Assembly (NCBI GenBank): GCA_001275005.1
Contig: JWZX01002168.1
Location: forward strand, 1 to 43,375
DNA from: Chrysochromulina tobinii
Taxonomy: Eukaryota
Length of the DNA: 43,375 bases
Reading direction: 5' to 3'
Numbering within the stretch: position 1 is the stretch's first letter; each line of letters begins with the position of its first letter. The translations under genes were made by a program, and so were the position numbers. Shown piece after piece: positions 13,501 through 36,221 of this stretch. Under the pieces are notes generated by a model. It saw only the letters and a list, made by a program, of their open reading frames with translations, did no database searches and was not told the origin of the DNA.

Positions 13501-15984
13501 GCTCGCTGCCCGCCGAGGCCGCGCAGCTCGCGCGCTCGAAATTCGGCCGTGTGCCCCTCCAGCATCGGCCCCACGCTTGGTTGTGCCTCTCGGGGGCACG
13601 CGACCTGATGCTCGCCTCCGCAGTACCATATCGGGAGCTCGTACGACGCGCCGAGATGGGCGAGGCGCCCATCGACCGCGACGTGAGCAAGCAGCTCGAC
13701 CGCGACCTGCCACTGATGACCTCTGATGACCTCTGATGACCTCTTGATTGCTCCCCTCATCAGGTGAGCAAGCAAATCGAGCGCGACCTGCCACGCACTT
13801 TCCCACAGCATCGAGCCTTCGCATCCCCCACAGGGCTGCGCGAGGCACTGCGGCGTGTGCTCCTCACCTATGCGTCGTACAACGTCTCGGTCGGCTACTG
13901 CCAGTCACTCAACTTTATTGTGGCCATCTTCTTGTTGGTGGCGGATGAGGAGGGCGCGTTTTGGCTCTTGGTGGCCCTCTGTCGGACGGTGGTGGCGGAC
14001 TACCACACACGCGATATGAGCGGTGCGCGGCGCGCGCGAGTCAGGAGGCCTTGCATGCAAGTGCTCACCACGGCGCTCCCCTTCCCCACAGGGCTGCGCA
14101 TCGACACGGCCGCCTTCGTGACGCTGGTACAGGAGAAGCTCCCTTCGCTGCATGCGCACTTTGTCAAGCTCGAGGTGCCTCTCGATCTCTCTGAGTTCCT
14201 TTGAGTTCGTCTGAGTGCGCCTGAGTTCGTCTGAGTGCGTCTGAGTGCGTCTGAGTGCATTGCATACAGGTGCCTCTCGAGATCCTCGCCTCGCTGTGGT
14301 GGCTCATCGCATGCTGATTGCCACCCTCATTGCATGCAGGTGCCTCTCGAGATCCTCGCCTCGCAGTGGTGGCTCTGCCTGTACGCGAACGTGCTGCCCA
14401 CCGCCACGCTGCTGCGCATGTGGGACGTGGTGCTCGCGGGCGGCGGCGTGGACACGCTCGTCGCCTCATCCCTCTCGCTGCTGCGTCGCTTCGAGCCGCG
14501 CCTTAAAGAGACAGAGGTGAGCTGATTGCGACTGCTGATGAGCGTTGATTGCGCCCCTCATCAGGTGGGCGGCGAGTGCCGAAGCACTCGAATCTTGATG
14601 ACGAATGAGTGCGGCTGATGAGCGCTGATTGCGCCCCCTCATCAGGACATTGCGGGTGTGTATGCGGTGCTCGCCGAGGCCACTACCGCCGTCTGGGACC
14701 CCGACGAGCTCATGCTCTCGATGCAGGTGCGCTGATTGCCACTGATTGCCACTGATTGCCACTGATTGCCACTGATTGCCGTGTGGGACCCCGACGAGCT
14801 CATGCTCTCGATGTAGGAGGAGCCCCCGGCACTGATTGCCACTGATTGCCACTGATTGCCACCTACATCGATGCAGGAGGAGCCCCCCGGCACAGATTGC
14901 CACTGATTGCCACTGATTGCCACCTACATCGATGCAGGAGGAGCCCCCGGCACAGATTGCCACTGATTGCCACTGATTGCCACCTACATCGATGCAGGAG
15001 GAGCCCCCGGCACAGCGCCTGGCGATGCACGAGCAGCGCGAGAGCAAGCGCAAGGAGGTGCTCGAGGCGCTCATCCGAGACCTTCCATGCTCTGAAGCGG
15101 ACGTGATGCGACTGCTGCAGGTGCGCTGATTGCCACTGATTGCCACTGATTGCCATGGATTGCCATGGACTGCCACGGATTGCCACTGATTGCCACTGAG
15201 TGCCACTGAGTGCCACTGAACGGACGTGATGCGACTGCTGCAGCTCCATGATGAGGTGCAGCGCCGCCAAGGCTTCGTGCACAAGAGTCATTCGATTGCC
15301 ATTGCTGCCGCCGAGGCCGGGGTGCCCAGCTCGGCGGCCGAGAGCACCTCGCTGTGCGCCATGTGCCTCGATAGATACATAAGTGCAACCGACCTTGCAA
15401 GGCTGCTCCTGCTCGGCAGCCCGATGGCCGGTTTGGGGCTTGCCGCGCCCATCGGGTTCACGCGCTCTCCTGAGCGCTCAATACAGCGCGGCGCGCACCC
15501 GAAGAGGCCGCCGTTACAACGGTCTGGACGAACACGTGTGCTCCCGGAGGATGCGGTCGTGGCGGCCAGGACGAAAGCACTGACCGACGATCTGATCGCC
15601 GCCATGGAGGCGGAGGCCGCAGCGGAGGCCGCAGCGGTGGCGGAGGGGGCAGCGGAGGCGGAGGTGGCAGCGGAGGCGGCGGAGGTGGCGGCGGAGGTGG
15701 CGGCGGAGGCGGAAGTGAAGACGGCCGGTGACGTTGCTGAGGCTGCCAACGGCGATGCGCACTCCGACGGGGCCGCTCGGGACGGCGCCGCTCGGGAACC
15801 CCACTCCGACGGGGCCGAGAGAGCGTACAAGGCGGCGGTGGCTGCGTCGGAGGAGATCTTCCTTGTGCTCGACCCGGAGCATGTGGGCTCAATCTCGGTG
15901 CGCCAGCTGCTCGTCGCCTTCCACCCGCCCTCCGCAGAGCTCCGGCTCGCTATAGAGAGGGCGGGGCTCGAGCTCGTCGAGTGA
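10503..15984 (+). CDS. Rab-GAP TBC-domain protein with N-terminal PDZ, a central C2-like domain and a C-terminal EF-hand-like motif (~1,547 aa, 6 inferred introns)
   Basis: PDZ: KFGLSL..AAEDGTLRVGDRLIAVN. TBC: IERDLPRTF (Arg finger), YCQSLNF (Gln finger), EEGAFW, QWWLCLY, LLRMWD. EF-like: FLVLDPEHVGSISVRQL. Introns 13683-13763, 14023-14091, 14175-14339, 14517-14645, 14727-14997 and 15121-15243 give a continuous 4,644-nt frame. Confidence 0.85.
14727..15243 (+). repeat. Intronic (CTGATTGCCA)n arrays with ~60-nt tandem units copying the exon junction
   Basis: Many CTGATTGCCA decamers and three ...CACCTACATCGATGCAGGAGGAGCCCCCGGCAC units, inside introns 14727-14997 and 15121-15243. Confidence 0.9.
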
Positions 15985-16247
15985 GGCGTAGCACGAAGCA
16001 CGGAGCTGCCGTGCGTGCGGTGGGCGTCGGTGCGATTCTCGTCTGTGTGGCGTGGGAAAGGCTCGGCGTTTGAGGCTACGTTACATGTAGCTCGGATCCT
16101 TTGGCAGGACCTTCTAGACCTTCTCGAACTTCTTTATATTGCAGCGGATTCACAATATGCAGAGAAAATTCGCAGCTTCATTCCCCTTCCAAAAGTGGAA
16201 AAGAAGGTTTTCGCGCGATCGCGATCCATGCGGCCCACGACGCCCTC

Positions 16248-18033
16248 ATGAACCTCACGCTGCCCGCAGACCTCATCTGGACGGTGGCCGTCACTCCTCT
16301 CGAGGAGCAGCTGCCGCAGCCAACAAAGGCACCACCCCAACCCATTCCGATCCTCAAGTGCGTCCAGACCCCTGCACGCGCCTCGCAATCCTCCATCAGC
16401 AGCCCCTGACACGCGCGGTCTTTGTGTGCGCGCAGTCGCGTGGTCGTTAGCAACCACGCGGCAAAGGCGGCGTTGCGCGAACGCCGAGGCACGCATGATG
16501 CGGCTCATCGTGTAGTGATGCACGTGCCCTCGGCTCCGCCGGAGCTCCGCGTGATGATGTCGATCCCGACCATCTTCAATCCGAACTTGAACGGCATGGA
16601 GCCCATTTCCGACTTCCTTCCCAGCCCGAACGAGACGGTCGGCTTCAAGTGCGCCCCTCGCCTGTCGTGTCCTGATTGCCCGCGATGCACCGCGCGTGCC
16701 CATCTCGCAACGATGCCCGCGAGGCGCGCGCTCCCTCTCCCCACGCCATGTCTCCACGCCACCGCGTGGTTTTGTCTCATCTGCTTGCCCCCACCCTTAT
16801 AACCTCGCAGCTACAAGGTCGACGGGATCCTCGGCTCGGGCTCCTTTGCCACCGTCTTCCGCGCCGTGCACGAAGGCGCCCAGAACCGGCCCGTGGCACT
16901 CAAGTGCCTAAAGAACGCAAAGGAGACGATGGATGCCGGGCTGGGCGAGGCCCGGGTTCAATCTATGATCCGCCTACATGACCCACTCGGCCGCCGGCAC
17001 ATTGTGCGACTGCTCGACTGCTTCTACTACCGCGAGCACCTCTTTCTTGTGTACGAGCGCCTCAACGCGTCCGTCTCGGCGCACTGCACGCACCTCGAGA
17101 CACTTGGCCCGCGCGCGCGCGCTGAGTACTGGCACGCAGGCTCGATCGGGGCCCTCTCCATCCAGATGCTCGACGCGCTCGCCTTCCTCACCTACCTCGG
17201 CATCACGCACTGCGACGTCAAGACGGCCAACATCTGCATCGTCAACGCGGAGCGTCGCATCTTCAAGCTAATCGACTTCGGCTCGGTTGTCCTCACGCAC
17301 GATGCCCACATGTCCTACCTGCAGGTGAGTGCCACTGAGTGCTACTGAGTGCCCCCCGCCCGATCACCTCCCAAGTGCCTCCCGATCGCCGCGCCTCGGT
17401 GGTCCTCACGTGTTCGACACCCACCATGACGCCCACCCACCCCCTACCCTGCAGAGCCTCTGGTACCGCGCGCCCGAGGTGATCCTCGGCCTCAGCTGGA
17501 CGCCCAAGATCGACGTGTGGTCCCTCGGCTGCGTGGCCATCGAAGTCGCGCTCGGCTTCTTGCCCTTCCAGTTCGCGTCGACTGAGCTCGTCCTCGCTGC
17601 CCACAATGCTACCCGCGGGCCCTTCCCACCATGGATGATGGAAGGGCCACTCGGATCCATCTACTTCTCCGGCTCCGGCTGCGTGTACGAGATCGACCCT
17701 CGCGCCGCCGCCCCGGGCGCCTACCTGCTGCACGCCGTGCCCAACACGACGCTGACCGAGCTGCTCGTCCAACAGCTCGATCCCGCCATATTCGGCGACG
17801 TGGTCTCCTTCGGTAACTTCGCAAAGACGCTTCTGACCGTCGACCCCGACGTACGCCCTACTGCGGCGGAGGCGCTGCAGCACCCGTGGATGGCCTCGTA
17901 TGGTCTCCCCCCAATCGATCCTCCGATCGTGCCTGAGGGCCCGCTTCCCCCGATCGATCCCCAGTTCAATTCCCCGATCGGCGCGCCTGTGACGCCCGCG
18001 TCGTCGGACGAGGTCCCTCTGACGGCGAGATAG
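16248..18033 (+). CDS. CMGC/DYRK-related Ser/Thr protein kinase (~471 aa, 3 inferred introns)
   Basis: Exons 16248-16357, 16436-16648, 16811-17324 and 17455-18033 give YKVDGILGSGSFATV, VALKCLK, HIVRLLDCFYYREHLFLVYE, HCDVKTANI, DFGS, YLQSLWYRAPE and IDVWSLGC. Confidence 0.88.
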
Positions 18034-18846: not shown

Positions 18847-21800
18847 TCACGGCGCCACGATGGAGCCACTTGCCCCAATGTCGACGACATTGCTCGAAAC
18901 CACCGGCCCGCCAGTTGCCTGATAGAGGACGAGGCGCAGCTGCGTGAACATCGAAGGTGGCGAGGGCGCCCCGCGCGAGACGACCCACGAGAGCGTACGT
19001 GCCTTGTCGTCCCAGCTGAAGGTGGTGCCGCGCATCGCCGTCGCCGTCGCGTAGTCCGTCGTCTCACCATCATCCTCAATCATCTGGAACGCGCCGTCCG
19101 CGCCGCCGTACACGCGCACCTCGAGCGGCCCACCCGGCAGCGCCCCAGTGTACTGCAAGAGGGGCACGAGGGGAACGATGGCGCCCGCGGGCGCAAACAC
19201 GGGCACAGCGGTGAAGTTGTCGTCGCTGTGAACCACGTCGATCGTGGGTCCCCTGATGGGGATCGTCCTCGTACCTTCCTTATTTGGCTCCGTGTCGAAG
19301 GGATACCACAGCCCCTCAGGCAGGTAGGCCGGGCTCTTCTCAGTCTCGCTTGTGAGGATCGGCGCGACGAGGAGCTCGCCGTCGAGCCACTGCGCAGTCA
19401 GGTCGGTGACGACGGGATCGTTCGGAAAGGCGGCGGCGAGCGGGCGCATCCACAGTCTTCCGGTGGTGTGCATCGCATGTGCGAGGGAGTAGTGGAACGC
19501 GATGAGGCGGTAGCGCTGGTTGAGAGCGCTGCGCATCCGGCTCGCGTATGGTTCGGGCCACAAGAAGGGGAAGTGCGGCTTGGCGTTCAGGGTACTGTGC
19601 ACCCTCATCGTGGGGAAGAAGGCGCCCGCTTGCATCCAGCGCGTCAGCAGCGGGCCGTTGGTCTCTCCAGTGAAGCCGCCGATATCGCACGCTACGTACG
19701 GCGCACCCGCAAGACCCCATCGGAGGATCATCGCGGGTGTGGACAGGAGATCGTCCCAACTTGGGTTGATGTCGCCTGTCCATACGGTAGCGCCCAGTCG
19801 CGCCATGCCAGGCGACCACGCGCGGTTGATTGAGTAGAAGCGCGCCGTCGAATTGTGCGCTGCGAGCGTCTGCTGCTGCGCCAGGTTCCAATAATAAAAG
19901 GTGAAGTAGTCGGTCTCGCCCTCGTCGTTCCAAAAGAAGCTCACGCCGTCGCTCAGGTAGTGCTGCTGGTGCGATACGTACCATTCCCGCGCGGCCGGGA
20001 TGCTGTAGTTGAGGTTACGCTGCTCGGCGTACAGTGATTTGGAGTGCAGCGCCCGCATGGTCTCAGGGGTCTCGCTCAGATTGCGCGGCGGCGCGTCGTA
20101 CTGGGCAGTCTCCCCCCCCGGCAGCACGAAGCCCTTTTGGCGTGCCTCGTCGAGCAGCGCCGTGTTGCCGAGCCGGGGCTTGCGGATGCCGCCGAAGCGA
20201 ATGTGCCTGTCCTCACGGTACGACTGGAACTGCTGCTGCGGCTCCGGGAAGGTGGTGGCGCCGTACCTGATGAGGGATGCACTCAATGGTAATCAGTGGT
20301 AATCAAGGGTATCAAGGGATGCCGCGTAGCTGATGAGGGGCGCAATCATCGATGAGGGGCGCAATCACGGCTGCGGCTCCGGGAAGGTGGTGGCACCGTA
20401 CCCAAAGTCAGTGTACCACGAGACTCCTTCTGGGGTAATCAGTGGCAATCAGTGGTAATCAGTGGTAATCAGTGGTAATCAAGGCACCGTACCCAAAGTC
20501 AGTGTACCACGAGACTCCTTCTGGGGTAATCAGTGGTAATCAGTAGTAATCAGTGGTAATCAAGGCATCGTACCCAAAGTCAGTGTACCACGAGACTCCT
20601 TCTGGGGGGAAGCCGTAGTCGGAGATGTTTGTGAACCATTCAAACTGCGATGAGGGCGGGAGTCGAGCGAGCGTGCGAGTTCACAGCGGGTTCACAGCGG
20701 GTTCATCCGCGTCTCATGGGCGGTCAGCAGTCAGCATGCAATGAGCGGCTTCATCCATGCAATCAACGGCTTCCTCCGCGTCACATGGGGTCAGCAGTCA
20801 GCACGGGTGCACACGCGCGCGGCAGGTCGAGGGGTCCCGGCTCGCACATCGCCGATTGGATATTGGAGGTAATCCGTGGTAATCAGTGGTAATCAGTGGT
20901 AATCAGTGGTAATCAAGGCTCGCACATCGCCGATCATGGCGTCGATTGGGTATTGGCCGTCGCGGAACTGCTGGAGCATCGACTCAATGTACGCGCGGTC
21001 CTTCCATCCCCAGCGGGACGCGAAGAAGCCGAACGCGTATCGTGGCGGCACGGCCGGGGCTCCGATGAGGGCATAATACGATTGCGTGCCCTCGTCGAGC
21101 GTCGACGCGGGCATCAGGTACAGCTCGAAGCCCGTGCCCCGTCTGGGGTGATTCCACGTGACGGCGCTCGTGGTGCGGGTGAAGGTGCTGGGGAAGAGGT
21201 TCGTCTTGCCGCTCCCCGTCGTCTCGCTCTCCGGCACCACGCCAAGGCAGCCGTAGCCGTCGGTGGACCAGTAATAGGGGGCGAAGACGCGCGTGTTGTC
21301 TACGACCGGGGACACCGTACCCGTGATGCTGAGCGCCCTGGCGCTCTTGTCGGCGCCCGCCCCGTACAGCGTGCTGGTGGGCGACGCAGAGAGGACCAGG
21401 CTGCGGGGCCCGAAACCAGTCCCTAGTGTGCGGTCTGAGCGCGGCATCGTGCCATCGATGGCGGACATGAGCCAGCAGTTGCCTTCGGAGTCGCCCGGCT
21501 GTCCATAGATCCAGTGGGCGCATCCTTTCGTGGCCTTGCACTTGCTGCAGCACTCGGCCTCGTTGTGAACCGTCGCCGGATCACCCGCCCGCGTCCCAGC
21601 CGTGATGTCGGTACCCTGCTGTGCCGCGCACGTGTCATTCGATGAGCCACCGTCAATCGGCATGGAGCGCGTCAGCTCCTTGCCGTGCGCGTCGAGGAGC
21701 ACAAGCTCGGAGTTGGGAGACACGAGAACGCTGCCAATGGAGGCAGCCACGATGCCCGTGCCAGTCACACCAGACACCTTTTCGAAGCTTGCATCTGGCC

Positions 21801-21990
21801 CTTCAGGAGCGACCATTGGCGTGTCTATGGGAGCCTCGCCAGCGGTCGTGAGGAAGCGCACACGGAAGGCCGAGGTGCCTCGCGTGGACAAGGCGATCGA
21901 TCCAGAGCCAGAGGGGAGCGGCACGACTACTTCCGCGTCGAGCGCGGCGGCGGCCATGGCGGCGACGCCCATAACGAAAAGTGATGTCAT
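18847..21990 (-). CDS. Glycoside hydrolase family 31 (alpha-glucosidase/xylosidase-like), secreted, with a PAN/apple insert (~851 aa, 2 inferred introns)
   Basis: PPRYAFGFFASRWGW, YPIDAMIGD|FEWF, FFWNDEGE (nucleophile), WTGDI (acid/base), CDIGGF, RWMQAGAFFPTMRVH; PAN-like ECCSKCKATKGCAHW..CWL. Introns 20645-20925 and 20267-20573 restore the frame (2,556 nt). Confidence 0.9.
20267..20925 (-). repeat. Intronic (CTGATTACCA)n arrays with exon-copy tandem duplications
   Basis: The + strand shows (TAATCAGTGG)n and three copies of GTACCCAAAGTCAGTGTACCACGAGACTCCTTCTGGGG. Confidence 0.88.
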
Positions 21991-22046
21991 GAGGCTGGAT
22001 TGTGGGCGGCGACACCGATGACGAAACCGAAGCTCAAAGGTCAGCT

Positions 22047-23162
22047 CTAAAGTTCGAGGCGTTTCGACGCCGCCTGAGTACAAATGTACCGCCGCTGAAC
22101 GTACGTACATCCTCGAGCGGCAGGTGAACCGCCGCTGCTGCCGCGAGTGCGAATCCCACCGACGGGCTGGTCGCTCGTCGGGGCACCCGCCATGCGAGTT
22201 TGGTTTGAGCTCCGACGGCCCTCGCGCCCTGCAGGGTCCTCGCCCCAGCCGAAGCTACGACCAATAAGGGCGTAGAGCTCGGCATTGTGCGGCCGGAAGA
22301 AGGCATCAAGCTTCGCTAGTTCCACAGTGGCGAGTCGGCCGACGTACCCCGCGCCGCCCCACTGACCGCCCGCGTTGCGCTCGGCGCCCGTCTGGCCCTT
22401 CTTCTCTAGCGAGGCCATCATCGCGGAGGGTATGGCTAGCCCTGCATGCGCCAGCACTCGCCGCACCGTCGGCAGCGGGTCAGCGTAAAACTCCTCGGAG
22501 CACTCGACGAGGACGCTCTCGCGACCAAAGTGCGCAAAGAAGCGCGCAAGGTGGCGCGCGTACAGGCCGTAGTTGAAGAACATGCGCACCAAGTTCGGCT
22601 CGGCTGGGCACTCGGGTGCGCATGCTATCATCCGATCCAGGCTGGATGCAAACTCGTCGTACGTCGCACGCTTCTGGGCCGCTCGGTGCTCGTTCATGCC
22701 CATGTTGTATGCGGAGTAGAAGCGATCGCTCGGATTGCGCAGGATTGTCACAAGCCGTGCGCGCGGCCCGAGCTGCTGCCGCATCATCGCGATGCGCTCA
22801 TCGGGCAGGACGAGGTAGTCGGGCGATGCGTCAAAGGCGATGGCCGTCGACGTGGCAGCCTCGACCTCAGGGCACGCAAACAGCCGACGGTACCAGCAGA
22901 GATTGACGCCGGCCTCGATCCCACGTGAGAAATAGCGTACTTCTTTGTCCCACGTGCACATCGACTTCCGCGTCAACCTTGGCCAATCACTTCTGCCGCT
23001 CTTGCAATCTGGGAAGACGATGTCGGGATGCGCTCGCAGCATGTTCGCCAGAGCAGTCGTGCCGCATTTGCGCGCACCGATGAGCAGGAGTGATGGAAGC
23101 AAGCCACCCGCGGTGGAGCAGGACGCGTTTGCGCTGCAGTCGGTCGCCTGGGAGGAAGCCAT
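22047..23162 (-). CDS. PAPS-dependent sulfotransferase (heparan-sulfate O/N-sulfotransferase-like fold)
   Basis: 5'-PSB LPSLLLIGARKCGTTAL, KEVRYF, FDASPDY, 3'-PB LRNPSDRFYSAY, GLYARHL, FFRPHNAELY. First ATG at 23162. Confidence 0.88.
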   Translation of the reverse strand: MASSQATDCSANASCSTAGGLLPSLLLIGARKCGTTALANMLRAHPDIVFPDCKSGRSDWPRLTRKSMCTWDKEVRYFSRGIEAGVNLCWYRRLFACPEVEAATSTAIAFDASPDYLVLPDERIAMMRQQLGPRARLVTILRNPSDRFYSAYNMGMNEHRAAQKRATYDEFASSLDRMIACAPECPAEPNLVRMFFNYGLYARHLARFFAHFGRESVLVECSEEFYADPLPTVRRVLAHAGLAIPSAMMASLEKKGQTGAERNAGGQWGGAGYVGRLATVELAKLDAFFRPHNAELYALIGRSFGWGEDPAGREGRRSSNQTRMAGAPTSDQPVGGIRTRGSSGGSPAARGCTYVQRRYICTQAASKRLEL

Positions 23163-23488
23163 TAAGCGGGCTTCACGCCCCCCTCGTGTGAAAAACAACA
23201 TCGCGGTACATGCATGCTACGGCACTGTTACTGCCCGCTCAGAAAACACACACGTTACATCTCGTGTGCGTGTCGGTTTGTGAAAGCCAGAAAAACCCAA
23301 CGCGGTTCGCGGAGCGTACCGGTACCGGTATGCGCAATTGGGTATGCGACGGCACTAATACTCAGTCAGATACGATCTCCAATCGTATCTGACAAGCTCA
23401 CCACTACCGGATCTCAGCCTGCTTGCAGGAAGTCGGATGTTGAGTATACAGTCTACAAAACTCGACATGTCGCCGGAGGTCAGAAACG

Positions 23489-24808
23489 TCAGACACGCCG
23501 GTGGTGCTGCTGCTCCGGGGGGGCGGGGTCGCGGGGGCGCGGCGCGGCACGAGCGACATGCACGGCCTTGAGCTCCTTGAGCTCTGTAGCTGGTGGCGGG
23601 GCGGTTTCTGGTGCTGCAGCATCCGCTAGCTCCTCGATCAGCTCGATCTCGAGCCAGGTCCAGCCGCTCGGTCGGACCCCCGCGGTATGCAAGGCCGCTG
23701 CCGCCATCGCGTTCACCTGCTTGCGTTGCTTGACGCAGTTGTACATGAGCACGCCGAGTGAGCAGATGGCAAATCCACTCAGGTTCACAACCGTGAGGTG
23801 ATCGCCGCGGGTAACTGCCGCCAGCAAGATGGTGAGCAGCTCCTTGAGGATGCCCAAGATGGATAGCGTCAGGGATGAGGTGAGCTTCACCAGCCAAAAC
23901 TCGGCGAGCAGCAGGGCGAACACGAGAGACGAGACGATGGTGAGGAATACAAGCAGCTGCAACGAGAGCTCTGCGGAGCTGAGAAACGGGGACTCGAGTA
24001 TCTCGCTCTCGAAGGCGAGTGCCGGTACCAGCGCACAGATCGCCGTGACGGGCGAGATGTACATCACGGAGCCCAGCGGATGGGAGTGGCGGGAAAGGAG
24101 AGCGGAGGGAGGCTCTGGACCCACGGCCGGCGCAGCGCCATTTGAATGGTCGGCGCTGGGGTGGTCGGCGCTGGTTCTGCAGCTTGAAGCGTCGCTGGAC
24201 CTGGCGCTCGTGGAGCTCCCGATCGACTCGCCGCTTCCAGCCGCGCGGCCTTTCATCAGAAGCTGGGTGAGAGCCCATCGGAGGCCACTCATGGCGGCCG
24301 AGGCAAGGCCGGTGAGCAGTCCAAACCCGCTGAAGCTGACTTCGGCGGACGAGGCCAGACCGATGCCAATGCACACAAGGGCGATGCTCGCCGCGGTGAG
24401 CGTCGACATTGGCTCGAGCCTGAGCAGCCAGCCAGCGAGCAAGACGAACGCCGGAATCGTGCCCTTGATGATCATGTGAAATGAGACGGACACCATGAGC
24501 AGACTCCAGTTCGAAAAGCCGATGTCTAAAGCCGTGCACAGCCCGATGGGCACCACCACCTTCTGGATGGTCTTGCGCGCGAGGGCCGGTTGGCGAAAGC
24601 GTGGAAGGCGTGTGATCAGACAGGCAAGCGTGGCGACTACGGCGTTAGTGGAAGCTGTCATGACGAATGGATAGTGGAATTCGCGGTTGGTGAGCAAGTG
24701 CTTGTTGGCAAAGACGATTGTGATGCTGGCAAGATACCATGTGAGAATCAGTGCTAAGATGACCAGGTGGCGTCGCCACGTGGGCGCGTCCATGCCACAC
24801 AAATCCAT
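23489..24808 (-). CDS. Nucleotide-sugar/triose-phosphate transporter family (SLC35C2-like) membrane protein
   Basis: About 10 hydrophobic segments; WY..SI.IVF.NK, FHYP, ALDIGFSNWSL, SGLRWALTQLL, LVKLTSSLTLSILGILKE. ATG at 24808. Confidence 0.88.
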   Translation of the reverse strand: MDLCGMDAPTWRRHLVILALILTWYLASITIVFANKHLLTNREFHYPFVMTASTNAVVATLACLITRLPRFRQPALARKTIQKVVVPIGLCTALDIGFSNWSLLMVSVSFHMIIKGTIPAFVLLAGWLLRLEPMSTLTAASIALVCIGIGLASSAEVSFSGFGLLTGLASAAMSGLRWALTQLLMKGRAAGSGESIGSSTSARSSDASSCRTSADHPSADHSNGAAPAVGPEPPSALLSRHSHPLGSVMYISPVTAICALVPALAFESEILESPFLSSAELSLQLLVFLTIVSSLVFALLLAEFWLVKLTSSLTLSILGILKELLTILLAAVTRGDHLTVVNLSGFAICSLGVLMYNCVKQRKQVNAMAAAALHTAGVRPSGWTWLEIELIEELADAAAPETAPPPATELKELKAVHVARAAPRPRDPAPPEQQHHRRV

Positions 24809-25144
24809 GTCTTGTCGGTCGCCATGCGAATTTGCGCTGGCTGTGCGTACGCGCGTCCAAGAGCCCCGGGGAGGGACCGACGCGCAAATAACCCAAACGC
24901 GGCAAGTTCGATCCCTTCGAAGGCTGATTCTGAATCTCTCAGCGCGTGAGAGGAGGCGCACACATGTGGGCACAGCCTGCACGCACTCACCGCTGCGCAG
25001 AGTAATGGGCACGGCACATCATGATCAGGTACCGCAGTACAACATACTCCCAACTCAGTCTTCCTCGTCCGCTCTCTCCCACAGGACTCCCCAAAACCAC
25101 AAGACACGCCGCCTGTTCACTGATCGATAGTCATCCTCTGGCCT

Positions 25145-28100
25145 TCAATTCACATTGAGGTCGATGGCGCGCAGAGGGGCGAAGCTTACATCCTCGTCCT
25201 CGGTGCACAGCATCGCGAGGGGCTCATCCACCGCGCAGCGCCGTGCAAAGTTGTCGAGCGCCGCCGCGCGCGCGTCGGCGTCTTGCTCGTCGCGCCCGTC
25301 GTACGGGGCCAGCGTAAGGAAGCCACCGCCAGCGTGCACGTCGCGCCCAAGCGAAGGGGCGACGAGCAACAGCTTGAGCAGCTCGCGCAGCTCCGATGCC
25401 TCATCTCGCGAGCCGCGTCGCTCGAGCACCTTGGCGTAGATGGAAGCGAGGGTCGAGAGTGTATCGGGGGCATCGGCGAGAGCGATGAAACCGCTCGCGG
25501 CGGCCGCCTGCTCGTGGAGGGTCGAGATCGCGTGCAATAAGAGGCCATCAGAAGAGGAAATCAAGAGGCAATTAACGACACTCGCCTGCTCGTGGAGGGT
25601 CGAGATCGCGTGCAATCAGAGGCCATCAGAAGAGGCAATCAAGAGGCAATTAACGACACTCGCCTGCTCGGCCGCGGTCGCGACTCCGTGAGGGTCGTGA
25701 TCGCGTGTAATCAGAGGCTATCAAGAGGCAATCCAGAGGCAATTAACGACACTCGCCTGCTCGGCCGCGGTCGCGACTCCGCCTCGGTGCGTGCTACTGC
25801 CGCCTCTGCCGTCGCGCCCTCCACGATCGAGACTCTTGTCGAGGTCGCGAATCCTCTCCACCGCCTCGGGCGGCGCGGCCAGCAGCTTCCGAGCCGCCGC
25901 GGCCAACTCGAGGATGTCCGTGGGCAGCAGCACGTTTGCGGGCAGCAAGTTCGCTGACCTCGTCAGCTCGCGAGGAGGGGTGCTCACGCGTACGGTCAGC
26001 GAGGGAGGCTGTGAAGAGGCCGGCTGTGAAGGGCCTCCGCCGCTCTTGCTGCCGCCCCGGCCTCGGTCGTCCCGGCCTCGATCGTCCCGGCCCTGGTCGG
26101 CGATGATGAGAGCGCGCGGGCGGAAGATAGTGCCTCCCTCGAGCACCACGTGCTGCGTGGGCGGCTCGTGCCGATCGTACCGATCGCGCGAGCCCGAGCG
26201 CGCCGGATCGTAACGGTCGCGATCCGAGCCACCCCCTGCAGCGGCCGAGATGGTCGCGAGGGGCAGCGCGCCCCACCCGAGGACCACCACCCTCTCGGGC
26301 TTCTCGGGCTCGACACCGGCGGACCGCTCGTCGCGACCATCTCCGCCGCTACGCCCAAGACGGTCGCCGCCGCGGTCGCCAGAACGGTTGCCAGCACGGT
26401 CGCCGCCGCGCTCGCCGCCGCGGTCGCCGCCGCGGTCGCCGCCGCCACCCCCCTTCGAGCGACTTGCGATGGTGACAGTGAGCTCGAGCAGCAGCTGAGC
26501 GCCACGTGGCATCGAGGCCGAGCGCAAGAGCAACTCACGAGAGCCGCGGGGCAGCAGCCACTGGTTGCGCTTCTCGTCGTAGTCGACGTCGAGGGAGAGC
26601 GTGTTCGCAAAGAAGGCATACTGCGCGCCCGAGGCGGCGCTCGGCGGCGGAGCCGAAGAAGGGCGCGCAGGGTCGTAGCGGTCGTAACGGTCGCGGCTAG
26701 ACGTGGCCGTCGGCGGCGGCGCACGCGTCATCTCAAGGATGGCGACGCGCATCGCCCGCCGTGTGATGAACTCATCTCGCGCGAGCTCCGGAGGCGGCGG
26801 CGCGCTCGCAATGTCATCGAGCTCGAGCAGGTAGCTTGGTGCTTCGAGAGGCACGAGCATCTTGAGGTCGTCGATGAGGCACGCGCGCTCGGAAAGTGGC
26901 GCGGTCACGTCGGCCGTGAGGACGGCGGAGAGCGCGTTCAGGTGCAGCCGCTGCCGCCCGCTGATCGGAGAGAGCGCGAGCGGTAGCGGAGGACGCTTCT
27001 CTTCCCCGCGCCGCTGTCGCTCGTCGTCGTCATCCTCACTGCGGTCGCGGTCGCGGTCGCGGCCGCGGTCGCGGTCGCGGTCGTTGTCGCGGTCGCTGTC
27101 CCGCCCCTTGTTGGCCTCGCCGCGCTCCTTGCCCCCTTTGGTGCGCCGCCCATCCTTCTCGTCCTCCTTGCGGTCCTCCCTGACTGCCTCGGGCAGCCAG
27201 CGCAGCGCGCTCAGCACCGACACGCTCATCGTGAGCGCGCCGACCGACACCGCCTTGCCGCCGCCGCCGCGCCGGCCGCCCTTCTCTTTGGGCTGCTCGA
27301 CCGGTTCGAGCGACCGGCGCACATTCGTCCAGTCGCCGTCTGCGGCAGCGCCCTCGTCGCCCTTGCCCTTGCCCTTGCCCTTGTCCTTGCTGCCTCTCGA
27401 GTCCTTCGCGTCCTTGGGCGGCGGCGTGCGCAGCTCGCTCAGCGGCAGGCGCAGCGTGCCTAGCAGCATGCGGTTCTCGCTCAGCCCGTGCTTGCGCTCC
27501 AAGTCGACGCCGTACAGGTTGAGCACCACCGCCTGCTCCGCCTCGGGCAGCTCCTTCAGCTTCTTGGCGAGCTCATCACGAGATCTCTTGAGCTGCGCGG
27601 TCGCCTCGCCCTTCGCCTCAGGGTCGCGCGTGCGCAGCTCGAGCGCCGCGCTGGGCGTCGCGTGGTCGTGAGCACGTCCCTTGCGCCGTCCGAGGTCGAC
27701 AGGGGGTGAGAGTGTCTCCCCCATCCCGAGCACCGAAATGCCCACCTGCAACGCGTCCACGCGCTCATCGAGCTGCTGCGGATCCGCCAAATGGACCGTG
27801 TGCACCGCCACGTGGACTCGCGTCGCTCGAAGCTCCTCGCGCAGCTTGCCCAGCGCCGAAGCGGCGAGGAGGTCGACGGTGACACTCGCGACCGTCTTGC
27901 CGCCCTCGCGCGCGAGCGTCTGCTTGTGCTTCGTGTAGTCGCCGTTCTTGAGCGTAGTCTCCAGGTTGAGCGTCGCCTCACCTGCGGCGTCAGTTGGCCG
28001 AGCTTCGTCAGAGAGGCAATCAGTGGCAATCAGTGGCAATCCGTTGCAATCAGTGGCCATCAGAGGCCATCAGTGGCAATCAGTGGCCATCAGAGGCCAT

Positions 28101-31100
28101 CAGTGGCCATCAGTGGCAATCAGTGGCAATCAGAGGCCATCAAAGGCCATCAGAGGCAATCAACGAATCTCACCCAGTTCGAAGCGTAGCTCCTCGTCGC
28201 GCTCGCCCTTGCTCCGCGAGGTCTGGCCGCGCGCGGCCGAGGCGGGCGCGAGGGCATGCAGCACCAGGTATACATCCGAGTCCTCGGGCGCCACGGTCGC
28301 AAGCGCGTCGAGCAACGCCCTGCGCGCGGGTGCACCGGCCGACGTAGCAAACGAGCGCTCGAAGGCGAGCGGCTGCGTGGTGCCGTCCTTGTAGAGGTTG
28401 AGCCTCTCCGTGTACAGCGGCGCTTCCTTGCTCGTGATCCCCTTGATGTCAATCTCAATCTGCACCGTGTCGAGACGCTCGAGGCGGTGCTTGCGGATGA
28501 GCTCGTCGATCAGATCGGTCCCTTCGCGGCTGAGCTCGAGCCCCTTGAGCGTCATGCGCAGCGGCTCGTCGACGGTCTTGCCGCCACCGCCACGCCATGG
28601 CGGCACGTCCCCACCCTTGCTCTCGCCCTTGCTGTCCTTGTCCTTGTCGTCCTTTCCGCCCTTGGTCTTCTTGGGCGAGTAAGACTCTCCTCGCGCATGC
28701 GCGGCCGAACGCTCCGCCTGCTCTGCCTCGGCTTCGATGGCGCGGCTCGCATCCTGTGGAGAAGGAGAGGCAATCAGAGGTCATCAGAGGTCCTCAGAGG
28801 TCAGCAGAGGTCATCAGTGACGGGGCGCCGTAATGAGCGCATCGCACCTGCTTCTCCTTATTGAGCCACTTTTGGAACTCAGAGAGCGCCTCGGTGCATG
28901 CAAGCGAGACGACGAGGGTGCCCACGCCCTCCTTGCCACCCGCCGGATCAGCATCTGCCAGCTCGAGCTTGCGCTCCTCGACGTCGTCGCCGAGCTTCAT
29001 CAGCTCGACCAAGTTGAGCTTCGCCTTGCCGAGGATCGAGCCCTCGGGCTTCTTGTCCGAGCTCCCTGCCTGCTTGGCCTCCTTGTCGCTCAGGCCGTAC
29101 AGCAGGAACGTCACATTCGACGCTTCCTTGTCGTCCTTGTTAGCGAGCAGCTCGAAGAACGCGCGGCGCTCCGCGGAGCCAACCGCCAGCCCGTGCGCAT
29201 GCGACCACTTGAGCGTCGTCTTCTCGTCACCCTTGTGCACCGACGAGCCGAGCTGGAGGGTCTTTCCGTCGGCGGCGGGCACCTCGATCCAGATGCGCAG
29301 GTGCGCTGGGGGCTTCTTCTTCGCCTTGCCGCCGAGCGTGAGGGAGTGCAGCTGGAACGTCATCTTGTACTTGGTTGCGAGCGCCGCCACGTCCACCGCC
29401 TTCTCGCTGCCGCCTGCGCCCGCCGCCGCCGAAACGGTCGACGGTGCGGCGGCCGCAGGCTTGTCAGTCGCGGGTGCACCTCCGCCGCTGCTCTCGCTGT
29501 TCACACTCCCCTTCACACTCCCCTTGGCGGCGGCTGGCGTCTTGCCGTCCGCTTCGTCGGCGATCAGCTTGAGCGCGGAGAAGCCCTTGACGGCGCACAC
29601 GAGCGTGCCGATCACGGCCTTGGAGCCAGATTCGACGAGATCGAGCGCGCCATCAAAGTCCTTCTGGTCGGCCAGGAGCTTCTCGAGCGAGACACGCCCG
29701 AGGCCCACCTGAGGAAGGAGGCGATCAGACGACATCAGGGATGCAAACGACATCGGGGTGCAATCAATGGTAATCAGTGGTCATCAAGGCCAGACGCTCC
29801 CCCCGAGGCCCACCTCCTTGCTGATGCCCTCCTTGTCTGTAACCACCGCCGCGAACTGCACCTCGCTATCCTCGGGCTCGCTCGTCTTGAGCGCGCGCAC
29901 AATCGCGGTGCGGAGGTCCGTTCCACCGGCCACGTCGTACGTCTGCTCGAGGGCGAGCGCCGTCGAGGTGCCATCCTTGGACTCGATGGTGATCGGCTCT
30001 GTCTTGACCTCGAGGCTCGCCACGCCGACCATGTCGATCAGGATGTGAAGCGTGCCGCTGCCGGCGGCCGCGGCGCGCCGGCCGGAGGAGGCGGCTGCGC
30101 CTCCGACGCTCGTGAGCACCGCCTTGCTGCTGATGGTGATGCTCTTGATCGCCACGGTGAGGGTGCTCGAGGCCACAGTGCGCACCGCCTCGGCCGTGAG
30201 CGCGCGCAGTCCCGCGAGGCATTGAGTGGTTACGAAGAGCGCGCCGGCTTCGGAGGCGCTCTTCGACGAGCCATCGCCTGCCCGGAGTGCAACGCGCGTC
30301 TTCGTGAGCTCGGCTCCCGTCGAGAGTAGTGTCGCCAGGGAGAGGCGCGCCGTCGCGATCACCGGCCCGTCGGCGGACCCGCCAGCGGACGCGGGCGCGG
30401 GTGCGGGCGCTGCTGGCGCAGGCGCGCCACCATCTCCAAAGACGTCAGAGTCGAAGAGGGACGGCGGCGGGTCGTCGGAGCTGAAGTCGTGCACGACGCC
30501 CTTGTCCTTGGGCTTGGGCTTCTCTGCTGTGGGTGCACTGCCGCCACCGCTACCCCCCGACGCGGCCCGCAGTGTGAAGACGACCTCCGAATCGACGGGC
30601 GTCTTCTTGGGCGCGAATGCCTTGATGGCGGCCTCACGTGGCGCCGTGCCGGGCTCGAGGGCAAACGAGGCGTCGAAATTGGCGGGAACGGCCTCACCCG
30701 CCTTGGGGGTGAGCGCGGCCGAGGTGCTCGACACGACACCGAGCAGGTCCACGTGGATGACCAACGGCGCGATGGGCTTGGGCGGGCGCACGAGCAACAC
30801 CTCATGCACGGACAGCTTGAGGTTCACCGAGCCCGGCGCGCCGCCGCCAGAGCTCTCCTTGAGCGTGCGAAGCGCGGCGAGAGCGACCACCGAGACGCTC
30901 AGCGTCCCAAGGGTCTCCTTGCCGTTGGGGGAGAGCACGGGGCGCGGCGCCATGGGTGAGAGGTCCTGCCCGGCCGCGAGCAGCGCCTTGAGCGACACGT
31001 GGCAGATGCCGTACGTCGAGGCGCTGCCGCTTCGGTCGAGGGTCTCAACCACGAGCTGAATCTCGCTCTCCTCCTCATCGGCCGCCTCGAGCGCCGTCGC

Positions 31101-34100
31101 GAGCTTCACGGCGAGCTTCGAGAGTGGCGCGAGTGTGAACGACTTGGAGAAGGGGAGTGCGTAGAGGCCTTCGCCGTGCGCGGTCGCCTTAGGGGTCGTC
31201 TCCTCGAGCTCGGCCACGCCGAGCATGTCGACGAGCAGCCGCACGCCATGGCGCGCGGCGGGCGGTGCTTTCTTGAGCTTGAGTTCCGTCACGTCGACGA
31301 AGAGTTGGTCCGAGTGCGCCGACTTGCCCATGGTGGCGAGTGCCGCGATCGCCTTGACGCCGACGGTGAGCTCGCCCACCACGACGCCGGCGCTATCGAC
31401 GATTGGGCGTGGCGTGGGCGGCAGGTCGGCGCCCTTGGCGACCAGATCATCCTCCAGATGCACACGCGCCACCTGATGAGGGGCGTCATCAGGAGGTCAT
31501 CAGAGGCAATCAGATGGCGACCAGATGGCAACCAGCATGCAATCAGAGGCGCACTCACCCCGAGCTCGGTGCATGCAATCAGAGGCGCACTCACCCCGAG
31601 CTCGGTGCATGCAATCAGAGGCGCACTCACCCCGAGCTCGGTGTGCTTCGACTTGTCCTTCGGGTCGACACCGAGCACGACGAACTGGATCTCGCCGTCG
31701 TCCTTCTCGGGCGACGCGAGCGCGTCGAGCAACGCCTGACGAAGCGGCGTCCAGGGGTCATCAGGGCTCATCAGGTGTCATCAGGGCTCATCAGGGCTCA
31801 TCAAAGGTCATCAGTGGCACTCGCCTGACGAAGCGGCGTCCCGTCGGGCTCATCAGGGCTCATCAGGGCTCATCAAAGGTCATCAAAGGTCATCAGTGGC
31901 ACTCGCCTGACGAAGCGGCGTCCCGTCGGAGACATCGTACGCCTCGACCAGCCGCAGCCCCGCGCGGCCAGAGCTCATCTTCTCCTCGGCGGCTCGCAGC
32001 TTGCCCGCGTCATTGCTGCCCGGCATATCGATCTCGATGCGCACGAGGGACGTCTTCGCAAGCTTGTCCTTGAGTCGGATCGCCGTCAGCGTCACCTGAT
32101 GAGGGGCGTCATCAGGAGGTCATCAGAGGCAATCAGATGGCAATCAGATGGCCATCAGATGGCCATCAGATGGCAATCAGCATGCAATCAGAGTCGGATC
32201 GCCGTAAACTGCACCACGATCCGCTGCGACGCGCCCGACGCTTCCTTTTTGCGCTTCTCCGCCTCCGCCACACGCGCCGTCGCGAGCTGCTCTTCGAGCT
32301 GCGCCATCGCCGTCAGCACCTTGCACGTGCACATGAGCGTGCCCACCATCGTCCCCTTGGCCGCCTCGAGTGCATCGGCCGACGCTGATGGCGCGCCGGT
32401 CGGCGGTGCCGCGAGCTCGAGGCTCTCGTTCACGAGGTCCTGATGAGGGGGGCAATCAAGAAGTCATCAGAGGTCATCAGGGAGTCGAGCAATTGGGCGA
32501 CGGTGCCCTGATGAGGGAGGCCATCAGAGGTGCACTCAGAGGTGCACTTAGAAATCAGAAGTGCAATCCACGGCAATCAGAAGTGCAAGGAGAGGTGCAC
32601 TCAGAAGTGCACTCGGAGGTGCAGCCAGGTGGGTGCCGGTAACGACTTGGGCAGGCACCTTATTCTCGTCCAGCAGCGCACCCATGTCCACCACGCCGAG
32701 CGCGAGGGGCGCCGTGCCGGGCGCGACGCCGCCCTTCTTGTCGGTCGCATGCAGCTCGAACCGAATGGTGCCCTCCCGCCCGTGGAGTACCTCGAGCGGT
32801 GTCGGCGGTTGCGCCGCCCTCGCAGGCGGCGCGTCGAGCGCGAGCAGCAGCGCGCGTGTCACCTCGCCCCCTGCGCTCACCTTGACGGAGTGGGTCAGGC
32901 TGAAGGTGCAGCTACCATCCACGCCAAGCGAACCTTCGGCCGAGAGCATCGTGATGATCAGTAAGTGGCAGTCAGTAGCAATCAGTAGCAATCAGTGGTA
33001 ACCAGTGGCAATCAGTGGCAATCACGTGACGAACCTTCGGCCGTCGCGAGCGGCTCGACGGTTGGCTGCCCGCCGAGCTTGACGAGCAGCTTCACCGGCG
33101 TCTTCTTCGCCGGCTTGGCGGAAGCGCTCGTGATCGTGGCGACCGTGGCGCCGACAGTGACCACTGCCTTGGCCGCCAGCTTGCTCGCGAGCGCCGAGAC
33201 GGGCGCTCGTCCGGCGCTGACGGCGAACGGCGTGAGAGCTGCGATCGCGCCCACGGTGCATGTGAGCTCACCGAGCTTGGCACCAATGACGCCGTCCACC
33301 GAGGTACCGATGATGGAGAGCGGGCCCGAGTGGTCCTTGCCCTCGGAGACGAGCTGCTCGAGCGAGCAGCGCGCCACGCCGATCTCACCCTCGGGCAGCT
33401 CGTTGCCCTTCTCATCGCAGGCGAGCACGACGAACTGCACCTCCGAATCCTCAATCTCGTCCGACTCGAGCGCCTTTGCAAACTGCGCCACGAGCGGGTT
33501 GCCCGCGGCCACAGCGAATTCCTTCTTGAAGGCCAAGGTCGCGCCGGAGGCTCGGCGCGGCAGAGTGATGAGCTCAGAGGCTTCCTGGGCCACGCCGAGC
33601 ATGTCGAGCTCGACGCGCAGCCGGGCGCCCTTCTCACCCAGGGAGCCCGCGGCGCGCGCCAAGACCTTATCGGCGAGCGTGAGCGATCCCATGCTCACCT
33701 GATGAGGGGCGTCATCAGGAGGTCATCAGATGCAATCAGATGACAATCAGATGGCAATCAGGTGAGCGATCCCATGCTCACCGTCACCGCCTCGGGCGTG
33801 CCCAGCGCCGTGCTGAGCGCGCCCGCGAGCGCGTCGTTCACGGCGTCGGCCCGGGGCGATGAGACTCCGTCTACCCCGGCCTCGCTCTCGGGGATCTCGT
33901 CAGATCGGATCTCGCCGCTCCTCTTTGAGGGGCTGAAGGCGCGAACCGCTTTCATCGACGCGCCGAGTCGGCGGCTCGGAGTCAGTGAGCTGTTGGGCTT
34001 CGCACTCTCGGGCTCCTTCTTCGTACTGCCGGGCGCCGCGCCTGCCTTCGAGGCCTCGGCTGCCTTGGCCGCCTTGCCGCTGAGCCCGACGCCCTTCCCC

Positions 34101-36221
34101 TCGTCCTCCTCGGTCTCGGGCGCGCGCCGACGGCGAGCCGCCTCGGCCGGCGCCGTCTTGGGCGCCTCCTCGGCCGGCTTGGGCGCCGTGGCGGGCGTTT
34201 TGGACGCGTTCTCGACCGCTTTGAGGGCCGCGATGGCGGTGATCATGCACGTGAGCTGGCCGACAGGCTCCTTCTCACCGGTGCGACGGATGGCCAGCGG
34301 GCCCGAGTGGTCCTTGCCATCGGAGACGAGCTGCTCGAGCGAGCAGCGCGCCACGCCGATCTCGCCCTCGGGCAGCTCCTTGCCCTTCTCATCGCAGGCG
34401 AGCACGACGAACTGCACCTCTGAATCCTCGGTTTCATCAGAATCGAGCGCCTCGAGATACCTAATTAGGGACATGGGGCGCTGTGGGGTGAGCGCTTGCA
34501 TGCAAGGAGACGCAGGCCATCAGTGGCAATCAACGTACGTGAGACGCAGCGCTGGTTGTGCGCGCGCGTGCATGCAAGTCAGGTCATCAACGGGCAGGTC
34601 ATCAGTGGCAATCAACGTACTTGAGCGCGAGCTTCGACTCCGGTCCGGCGAGGTAGTCTCTCTCAAACGAGAGTGGCGCACTCGCCTTCGCACCGAGCTT
34701 GCTCGGGGCCGTGCGCAGGTTCTCCTTGTCGGTAGCAAGCATATCAATCTCGACACGAATGTACGTCACCTTCTGCGGCTTGGCGTCGGCCGCGGCTCCT
34801 TTGCCCTTGTTCGCCGCCGGCAGCGTCGCGCCCGACTCGGCGAGTGTCACGGACGAGAGCGCGACGCGAACCGACGGAACGCCACTCAGAGCCGTGGCAG
34901 CCACGGCGGCGCCCTTGCCGCCACTCAGGCTCAGGATGCTCCTCTTCTTGCCGCCTTCGTCGGGCGCCGTGTCGTCTTCCTCGGCGTCGAGGCCGCGCAG
35001 CACCGCCAGGCACTCGACCGTGCACGTGAGCGTGCCGAGCGGCTGCGGATTCGTGTGGAGGCGGACATCAGAGCTCATCAGAGGCCGTCCTTAGAGGTCC
35101 TCAGAGGCAATCAGAGGTCATCTGAGGCCATCATCAGAGGTCCTCAGATGTCCTCAGAGGCCATCAGAGGCCATCAGAGGCCATCTGAGGCCAGCAGAAG
35201 GCCATCAGCGCACCTGCGGACTCTTGTCAAGGGAAAGGATCGGCAGCTCGCTCTCCTCATCCTCGACGTCGCGCAGCCCGTCGATCGACTTGCTCAGGTC
35301 CACCTCGGCCGTGCCCAGAGGCGTCGCCTTGCCCCCCTTCTTGACCGAATCCACGTAGATGCGCAGCTTCAGGCTCGACTGTCGTCGCGCCTTCATCAGC
35401 GCAGTGCAAAGCGCCGTGCCGGGCGGCACCGGCCACGTCGCGTCAAACTCCAGAGCCGCCACGCTGTCCGTGAGCGGGAGCGCCGGGCACGAGATGGGTT
35501 GGAGCAGCCCGGGCGGCACGCCCACCACCTCGCAGCGCAGCGCTGCGTATTCGACAGCCAGGGCCTTTGGGCTCTTGGCATCAAGAGCGAGCTCTGTCGC
35601 CTTGAGCACGAGCACCTGACGGCTCTTGGTAGCCTTGGCGGCGACGTCGGCGGCGGCGGCCTCCATCGCGTCGGCCTTGAGCGCCGTCATCGCAGCGAGC
35701 GAGTGCGTCGTGAGCGTGAGCTCTCCCACCTGGCTGCTCGCGGCATCCCGCACGGGCAGCGACTCCCCGTGCACCTCCTGCTTGTTGTGGAGGATCGTCT
35801 CGAGACGAAAGACGGCCGTGCCGAGGAGCGTCTCCTTGGCCGCAGCCGAATCTTTCTTCGCCGACGTGGTGGGTGCGTCCTCGTTCACGCCGTAGACGTT
35901 GATGAGCACCTCGCTATCCTCATCTTCATCGGTCAGCAGTGCGGCGATGAGCGCTTCGCGCACCGGGTTGTCGCTGCCACTCGAGCCGATTTCGTACTTG
36001 CAAAGCCAGTTGACCTTGGCCTCGCCAAGCTTGAGAACCACGGCCGCCGACCGCTTGAGCTCGTCCTCTTGCCCGGGCATGTCCAACTCGACGATCACCT
36101 TCTTGCCATCGTACCGCTGTGCGAGCTTGCTGGTGAGCGAGACGCTCACCACCGTGAGCTCGATTTTCGCGTCGGCCGGCGTGCGCGCGCCGAAGAGAGA
36201 GATGCGCGACACTGCTTTCAT
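25145..36221 (-). CDS. Giant ciliary transition-zone-like protein: ~12 tandem RPGRIP1/RPGRIP1L-C-terminal-type C2 domains plus a nephrocystin-1-like C-terminal region (~3,084 aa, 12 inferred introns)
   Basis: Recurrent module (V.IDM.G...AL.....EDSEVQF.V.....G.A...L..L.....D......G.L...V....AL). The C-terminus (RRAMRVAIL..FANT..LLLRS..LLLEL..GWGALPL..LEGGT..NLLP..FAPL) parallels NPHP1 as I recall it. Introns 35043-35213, 34461-34620, 33699-33781, 32934-33034, 32440-32658, 32096-32214, 31736-31906 (GC-AG), 31473-31630, 29709-29813, 28754-28847, 27982-28173 and 25508-25756 (GC-AG) give a 9,255-nt open frame. Confidence 0.75.
25508..25756 (-). repeat. Three tandem intron-like units, each starting CAG|GCGAGTGTCGTTAATTGCC
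   Basis: The + strand shows GAGGCAATTAACGACACTCGCCTGCTCG three times. Confidence 0.88.
27982..28173 (-). repeat. Intron with (CTGATTGCCA/CTGATGGCC)n array
   Basis: The + strand shows (CAATCAGTGG/CCATCAGAGG)n. G|GTGAG donor and CAG|GTGAG acceptor join ELG-EATLNL. Confidence 0.85.
31473..31906 (-). repeat. Two introns with donor-spanning tandem duplications
   Basis: A 36-nt unit CACCGAGCTCGGGGTGAGTGCGCCTCTGATTGCATG x3, and GACGCCGCTTCGTCAGGCG x3 with CTGATGAGCC/TTGATGACC arrays. Confidence 0.85.

Follow-up and report, generated by a model that had tools for sequence, protein, structure and literature searches.

It has long been asked how a new intron can acquire its two splice sites and a branch point at once, and for most of the gains reported no source can be traced. 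We describe here a family of introns, built from a repeat tract and copies of the adjacent exon, in a 43-kb window of Chrysochromulina tobinii (contig JWZX01002168.1). The window is the whole stretch of DNA that was analyzed (43,375 nucleotides, nt), and all statistics come from it. One single-exon protein of the window is present in NCBI/UniRef, in a 90% cluster that includes KOO32186.1 of C. tobinii. A literature search, made mostly outside subscription journals, found no account of this intron family.

Among the closest described systems, the neointrons of Daphnia pulex are explained, in the available part of the report, by staggered double-strand-break repair with flanking repeats of 4-17 nt (PMC4202315). 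The introns of the window are like them in having an insert between direct repeats, in showing repeated rounds at one site (the staggered-then-staggered pattern), and in the lack of a transposon. They differ in that the copies are 10-66 nt long and that one sense-oriented repeat filler is shared with neighbouring introns up to the splice site, whereas the available Daphnia text mentions no filler family common to the inserts. Another route to intron gain, tandem genomic duplication of an AGGT segment, is described in the accessible part of a review (PMC3443670). The likeness is that duplicated exon gives splice sites, with AG|GT inside the duplications of two introns of the window (D4 and D9, see below). 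In that definition, however, the intron is solely duplicated exon and both sites come from AG|GT, whereas here all introns hold non-exon filler, a foreign repeat between the copies that usually brings one splice site and a likely branch point. D4 and D9 are the only introns in which the duplication gives both splice sites (with short overlaps in A3, D7, and D12).

The available text on introners describes a family with 4-bp duplications in Chrysochromulina sp. (10.1101/2022.06.06.494994, PMC9860276). As with introners, many related introns lie here in unrelated genes, with one splice site carried and the other taken from the duplication. On the other hand, there is no end-to-end similarity and no fixed duplication length, and complexity is low. 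Gozashti et al. define introners by similarity to both ends; none of the 190 intron pairs of the window is similar at both ends over at least 9 nt, and the pairs have a common prefix or suffix only. DNA-transposon introners are recognized by a fixed short target duplication and/or terminal inverted repeats, whereas the end duplications here range from 0 to 31 nt, terminal inverted repeats are absent, and the best antisense match between introns is 12 nt or less. It should be noted that the introner survey required both-end similarity and removed low-complexity families; C. tobinii was screened and is mentioned at least once (genome list) in the available part of the supplement (10.1101/2022.06.06.494994, PMC9860276). 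The present introns would thus mark a class of gain, with one-ended similarity and low complexity, that the largest introner survey excluded.

As far as the available texts go, same-gene intron duplications in fungi (rare, 82 of 1,610 multi-copy introns; PMC3609843) and sister stwintrons, which are seamlessly inserted (PMC8469720), concern whole near-identical introns. The recurrence of intron sequence within one gene, for which end joining has been proposed, is common to those cases and to the window, but the introns of the window have just one end in common, along with a duplication of exon. By comparison, the system appears to work like Daphnia break-repair gain, tandem-duplication gain, and same-gene intron duplication together, and not like a classical introner. 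Haptophyte introns rich in 10-11-mers also recall Emiliania huxleyi, whose 2013 genome paper reportedly noted introns rich in 10-11 bp tandem repeats, with no link drawn to exon duplication or intron gain.

Splicing and anatomy of the introns

Twenty introns were modelled from sequence before RNA was compared with genes A and C. Gene A (13380-15984 for the modelled part, forward strand, with an open frame extending upstream to 10215) encodes a RabGAP-TBC protein and holds introns A1-A6. Gene C (18847-21990, reverse strand) encodes a GH31 glycosidase with a PAN domain and holds C1 and C2, whereas D1-D12 lie in gene D (25145-36221, reverse strand), whose product has around 11 repeated RPGR1_C-like (C2-type) modules. 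Each intron is read on the strand of its gene. Removal of the 20 introns gives open frames of 681+ amino acids (aa) for the modelled part of the TBC gene, 851 aa for the GH31 gene, and 3084 aa for gene D. All seven introns whose coordinates were named in a preliminary description of this DNA, made from sequence alone, match modelled introns.

These segments are spliceosomal GT/GC-AG introns. RNA contigs skip all eight introns modelled in genes A and C exactly, with GT..AG ends, each in 2-4 of four runs (three of four for A1 and C2), and D1, D9, D10, and D11 are spliced in RNA contigs that align as split pieces (D1 and D9 in two runs). This makes 12 exact joints among the 20 introns, all of them GT..AG, and all 20 restore the frame, so that the splicing proposed in the preliminary description was borne out by RNA mapping for these 12. 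D2-D8 and D12 are supported by frame restoration; they are not among the RNA joints listed, and there is no evidence against their splicing. Three of the introns named beforehand, D3 (33699-33781), D6 (32096-32214), and D4 (32934-33034), belong to this group, as do the two introns with GC donors, D7 and D12. Fifteen of the 20 introns are in phase 0, as calculated from exon lengths.

The DNA itself is also well supported. Words of the 27.5-35.5 kb region were recovered at 93-96% in 14 DNA runs, the runs that hold window sequence being mixed-culture and freshwater samples. D9 is crossed by one unspliced DNA contig without any difference, and proteins from other samples terminate in the D3 and D4 exon copies. 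A1-A4 and A6 are letter-identical in two other assemblies, where A5 is shorter by 1 and 61 nt. The duplications therefore hold up against the suspicion of assembly artefact that had been raised, except for the unit number of A5.

The basic event is an X-R-X arrangement, in which a duplicated exon piece X stands on both sides of a repeat tract R. Terminal exon copies with a score of at least 10, direct repeats flanking the insert as in Daphnia, were found in 10 of the 20 introns and in 0 of 380 mismatched intron/exon pairs. A local-alignment control gave 3 of 380 pairs at 14 or above (maximum 40), probably due to overlapping exon windows. The terminal copies are 10-31 nt long, and inner copies reach 66 nt in C2 and 55 nt in A5.

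The copies stand at the splice sites in three ways. In A1 (13683-13763), D3, and D6, the left copy begins with GT and the filler ends in CCCCTCATCAG. A1 takes its donor from a 31-nt copy of the next exon (28/31), followed by a repeat tract and the CCCCTCATCAG acceptor, with 6 nt of microhomology at the X/R join; the donor lies in a perfect 20-nt copy of the next exon in D3 and in a 24-nt copy (20/24) in D6. In A5 (14727-14997), A6 (15121-15243), and D7 (31736-31906), it is the right copy that ends in AG. A6 has a perfect 23-nt copy of the previous exon's end as acceptor, and D7 a 17-nt exon-end copy, together with its GC donor and a nested 82-nt duplication. A5 combines the donor cassette GTGCGCTGATTGCC, nested exon copies of 55, 28, and 27 nt, and an acceptor from an exon-end copy; its splicing bypasses three upstream AG copies. 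D1 (35043-35213) carries the same donor cassette as A5 and A6 and a weak 14-nt exon-end copy (12/14). Finally, the copy contains AG|GT in D4, where a 14-nt duplication around the array gives both splice sites, and in D9 (29709-29813), where the duplication is also of 14 nt.

Further rounds at the same site were found in A3, A5, C2, D7, D8, and D12. A3 (14175-14339) shows two nested copies of the next exon's start (13 and 38 nt) with repeat tracts, C2 (20267-20573) three X-R-X rounds with exon copies of 44 and 66 nt, D8 (31473-31630) a 36-nt unit (exon end plus donor) present three times, and D12 (25508-25756) nested exon-end copies behind its GC donor. C1 (20645-20925) is an older intron with an X-R-X insert spanning its donor; of the close relatives, just some have the insert. 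A clear exon copy is lacking in six introns: A2 (14023-14091), with a second cassette (TGCATGCAAGTGCTCAC) and without the 10-mer array; A4 (14517-14645), with two back-to-back cassettes each ending in CCCTCATCAG; D2 (34461-34620), with an array, the second cassette, and an internal duplication; D5 (32440-32658), with two CCCTCATCAG acceptor cassettes; D10 (28754-28847), with an array; and D11 (27982-28173), with a 15-unit array and a 6-nt direct repeat at its ends. A4 resembles two introns around a zero-length exon and is a candidate for stepwise splicing; D5 also has two acceptor cassettes.

Compared with the preliminary description, which had most introns carrying a copy of adjacent exon, a terminal copy is seen in half of them and no clear copy in these six, and exon copies provide a splice site in roughly half of the introns. 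The proposed length of about 10-65 nt fits if inner copies are counted; at the ends, the range is the narrower one given above.

Origin of the repeat filler

The unit motif TGA[TG][TG][GA]CC was found in 20 of the 22 introns of four genes, the fourth being a kinase gene on the forward strand. There, intron B2 (16649-16811; RNA joint in 4/4 runs) has a single repeat unit, and the predicted intron B3 (17325-17454; sequence, its RNA joint not being among those listed) starts with a CTGAGTGCCA-type array. The motif occurs 93 times in sense and once in antisense in 3,541 intron bases, with 8 matches in the remaining ~39.8 kb, which confirms the sense-strand arrays noticed beforehand in the four genes. 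CCCTCATCAG forms the 3' end of 6 of the 20 introns. YTRAY is a branch-point motif, and the repeat unit holds CTGAT, which fits it; the last YTRAY-type A stands at -17/-18 in 7 of the 20 introns. Read on the opposite strand, the common acceptor TCATCAG becomes CTGATGA. In one DNA run, array-bearing bins had a summed contig depth of 21,919-37,974 against ~45-70 for single-copy sequence, a crude sign that the repeat family is genome-wide at several hundred times single-copy depth.

Common tracts of at least 30 nt were found in 5 of the 190 intron pairs: D6/D8 (46 nt), C1/C2 (39 nt), A5/A6 (35 nt), D3/D6 (32 nt), and D3/D8 (32 nt). The C1/C2 tract is a GATTACC-type array, the A5/A6 tract comprises the first 35 nt of A6, and D3, D6, and D8 have a common 3' end, with the last 46 nt of D8 found in D6 and the last 32 nt of D3 in both. 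All five are same-gene pairs, at distances of 320-2,189 nt (permutation p = 0.0014 for distance and 0.03 for same gene). In four of them the tract reaches the splice site and extends into the exon by 5 nt (A5/A6), 4 nt (D3/D6), or 3 nt (D3/D8, D6/D8), the result predicted if these bases serve as primer when a strand switches to an unspliced template. Furthermore, microhomology at the X/R joins has a mean of 1.86 nt versus 0.85 by chance (22 of 28 hand-picked joins were testable; p = 5e-5). Judging from these tracts, the filler looks copied from neighbouring introns rather than unit by unit from a dedicated RNA template.

We give a probability of about 0.5 to the reading that introns arise when repair switches template by microhomology and copies one end of a nearby intron. 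The template switch, the enzyme, and DNA as the template are what we infer here. A repairing or stalled DNA strand would leave its template at a short match, copy the end of a nearby intron, and rejoin 10-60 bases upstream, duplicating the exon piece X. Copying the neighbour's acceptor end and returning at a shared GTG would leave a left copy starting with GT as donor, and exit at a shared CAG followed by copying of the neighbour's donor end would leave a right copy ending in AG as acceptor. The repeat unit could supply the branch point, selection would retain only cleanly spliced outcomes, and repeated X-R-X events would lengthen existing introns. The enzymatic route could be polymerase-theta-like end joining or break-induced replication, which is a guess. 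The preliminary description had suggested break repair or slippage with templated repeat addition; this fits in its general form, several introns being absent from homologues, but not with respect to a dedicated RNA copied unit by unit, given the neighbour-like tracts of 32-46 nt.

A wider and more tentative claim is that an element-free, genome-wide intron multiplier may operate in freshwater Chrysochromulina, in which each intron would provide one of its ends, with a splice site and branch-point repeats, for a new site of the same gene and the priming microhomology would make the exon copy supply the missing splice site. If this were true, introns would spread locally, much like a contagion, and the design of introner surveys filters this route out. 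Source and target seem readable within a single gene, and the alga is cultured and has public genomes, RNA data, and numerous wild strains; break-repair intron gain thereby becomes directly testable at genome scale.

Age of the introns and competing explanations

A genomic TBC copy (L004), which is a paralogue or belongs to a sister species (74-80% identity in most exons; its protein is labelled C. parva), has clean empty sites at A1, A2, A5, and A6, four of the six introns. The stretch 10337-10841 of L004 is a 97%-identical exon tract with introns A3 and A4 inside an otherwise intron-free copy, a possible case of intron transfer by gene conversion. A3 is common to both copies at 86%, and the second A4 cassette begins in L004 with the GTGAGC of the first. 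At each of the three positions where L004 differs, the exon copy in A6 has the letter of the window exon, which makes this duplication younger than the split from L004. The L004 copy also has a different N-terminus (UBA and WWE in protein P0123).

Among protein homologues, all eight TBC homologues (P0121-P0128) read through A1, and several of them run into introns elsewhere; P0121 has a repeat-like insert at the A3 position. The gene-D orthologues P0263/P0342 and P0255, 44-51% identical, read through D1-D7 and stop near D8; they probably represent one locus, since both list an 18,377-nt contig. The frame of P0342 terminates with LPLIASDYL, compatible with an in-frame reading of the repeat of the window introns, at a site where the window has no intron. 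P0265 was considered as a D3 read-through and rejected, because its end is the translation of the D3 exon copy and D3 is therefore present. In P0264/P0328 and P0257, on contigs shorter than 900 nt, module 3 is joined to module 4; these are possible chimeras, and P0264 and P0257 were left unused. P0264 then runs into a D5-like tract at a site that is intronless in the window, and is either chimeric or shows an intron newly copied from D5. Regarding gene C, 172 of 175 GH31 homologues were aligned; C1 and C2 are read through in 113 of these, two of which lie on contigs of 76 and 308 kb.

Among close relatives, only the C1 insert varies: the X-R-X insert is in two close relatives and absent from three (92-98% identity), all of which have C1 itself, whereas whole-intron absence is seen in the paralogue and in distant homologues. 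This polymorphism in the sequences indicates that the process is recent.

Several observations weigh against the proposed template switch and against recent gain. Nine of the 22 testable joins show no microhomology, the joins having been chosen by hand, and within-gene similarity was not significant in a whole-intron k-mer test (p 0.055-0.12). DNA and RNA as template are indistinguishable in these data. L004 may be a retrocopy or have lost introns secondarily, and its A3-A4 tract looks converted. Many of the GH31 homologues are probably transcripts, and protein read-through presumes intron-blind calls on genomic contigs. No empty site was found in a close strain: two assemblies (L001 and L002) carry all of A1-A6, and every relative with at least 92% identity that reaches C1/C2 has the intron (15 of 225 cluster members listed). 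The comparison of relatives, which the preliminary description had proposed, thus gave absences at A1, A2, A5, and A6 in L004, but the A3 and D8 positions appear occupied in relatives. In addition, events also hit existing introns, as the polymorphic C1 insert and A4, a cassette on an older donor, reveal; the exon copy is then a secondary mark in some introns and not always a birth scar. Finally, eight introns of gene D fall into clusters when their positions are compared across homologous modules (5 pairs lie within 6 nt; p ~0.001, also when the comparison is limited to proto-splice sites), a pattern that would fit old introns inherited with the modules or homology-guided copying.

The explanation that draws most on these points is that the introns are old and hold an unstable minisatellite, whose repeats spread inside them, while later slippage or repair across the splice site brought in exon copies and sometimes shifted the site by a few bases. 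The nested rounds in six introns, the insert within the shared intron C1, the older donor of A4, the module positions in gene D, and the occupied A3 and D8 positions all suit it, and this route certainly accounts for part of the exon copies. As the origin of the family, it is fairly unlikely: the simple introns A1, D3, D6, and A6 consist of an exon copy and one cassette only, homologues that have introns elsewhere read through A1, A2, and D1-D7, and identical ends of 32-46 nt cannot match the age of highly diverged modules.

RNA-templated insertion is also unlikely. Here a reverse transcriptase, target-primed as in non-LTR (long terminal repeat) retroelements or acting in RNA-templated repair, would copy part of the pre-mRNA of the gene itself, or a non-autonomous repeat RNA, at a staggered nick, so that target duplications would vary in length. 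This could explain duplications of 10-31 nt, the near-absolute sense orientation, the sharing within one gene, the many inserts that end at the acceptor, and the abundance of the cassette by contig depth, which is a crude measure. Nevertheless, the common tracts extend into the exon, which an excised intron does not supply (pre-mRNA would), and donor-end and acceptor-end cassettes both occur. The reverse transcriptase, transposase, or RNA template raised in the preliminary description was not found in a search confined to the window: Pfam gave no reverse transcriptase, transposase, or HUH domain in 18 window frames, which do not cover all of gene D, and Rfam gave no match. Motif scans of a viral collection gave no relevant match, only a single chance match inside a coding frame.

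A decayed DNA-transposon introner, MITE-like (miniature inverted-repeat transposable element) or mobilised by an HUH/Replitron element, is improbable, even though introners are reported in marine Chrysochromulina and Emiliania and Replitron-1, with one locus reported in C. tobinii, makes variable target duplications. No intron pair is alike at both ends, and neither a fixed duplication length nor terminal inverted repeats were seen. The 3' end of D6/D8 folds into a 7-bp hairpin (z -3.3 and -2.7), but significance was reached in two of six ends and not in the other four, and the hairpin was rejected as a defining signal. Lastly, assembly artefact or unspliced repeats, suggested by short-read assemblies that differ in repeats (A5 is 61 nt shorter in L002), is already refuted, except for the unit number inside A5, by the exact RNA joints, the restored conserved domains, the 14 DNA runs, the two further assemblies, and the proteins of other samples ending in the D3 and D4 copies.

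Cassettes outside the introns and neighbouring genes

The second cassette (TGCATGCAAGTGCTCAC) occurs at 12449, 13013, and 14053 on the forward strand and at 34495 on the reverse strand, within introns A2 and D2 and at two further places inside the reading frame of gene A. The copy at ~12985-13065 is flanked by direct repeats of 15 nt and resembles an X-R-X insert retained as coding sequence. RNA loose ends also place it before other acceptors elsewhere. Short arrays of the 10-mer also occur in unrelated bacteria, with seven matches in prokaryote genomes (L017-L023), and none of the seven has the acceptor cassette; three of the seven loci were read and are bacterial DNA with repeats of its own, intergenic or at a contig end. 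The likeness is probably convergent.

The introns are unevenly spread, with 22 in the four genes and several other genes open without a break, and the available part of the C. tobin genome paper gives an average of one intron per gene and uses the word 'intron' once. Examples of intron-free genes are a 2,221-codon frame with LRR, PDZ, and kinase domains (36710-43375, reverse strand) and a gene at 5602-6441 (reverse strand) with a DiatomPyrShell match (E 4e-90) and an internal two-domain repeat, which would be a pyrenoid-shell-like protein in a haptophyte. Moreover, L002 matches the window at 98.8% up to 18041, and beyond that point (14190-20258 of L002 compared with the window from 18041 on) it has different genes and the kinase end in a second, inverted copy; RNA runs also carry differing letters in the kinase gene, which, with the L002 divergence, amounts to a haplotype or paralogue difference.

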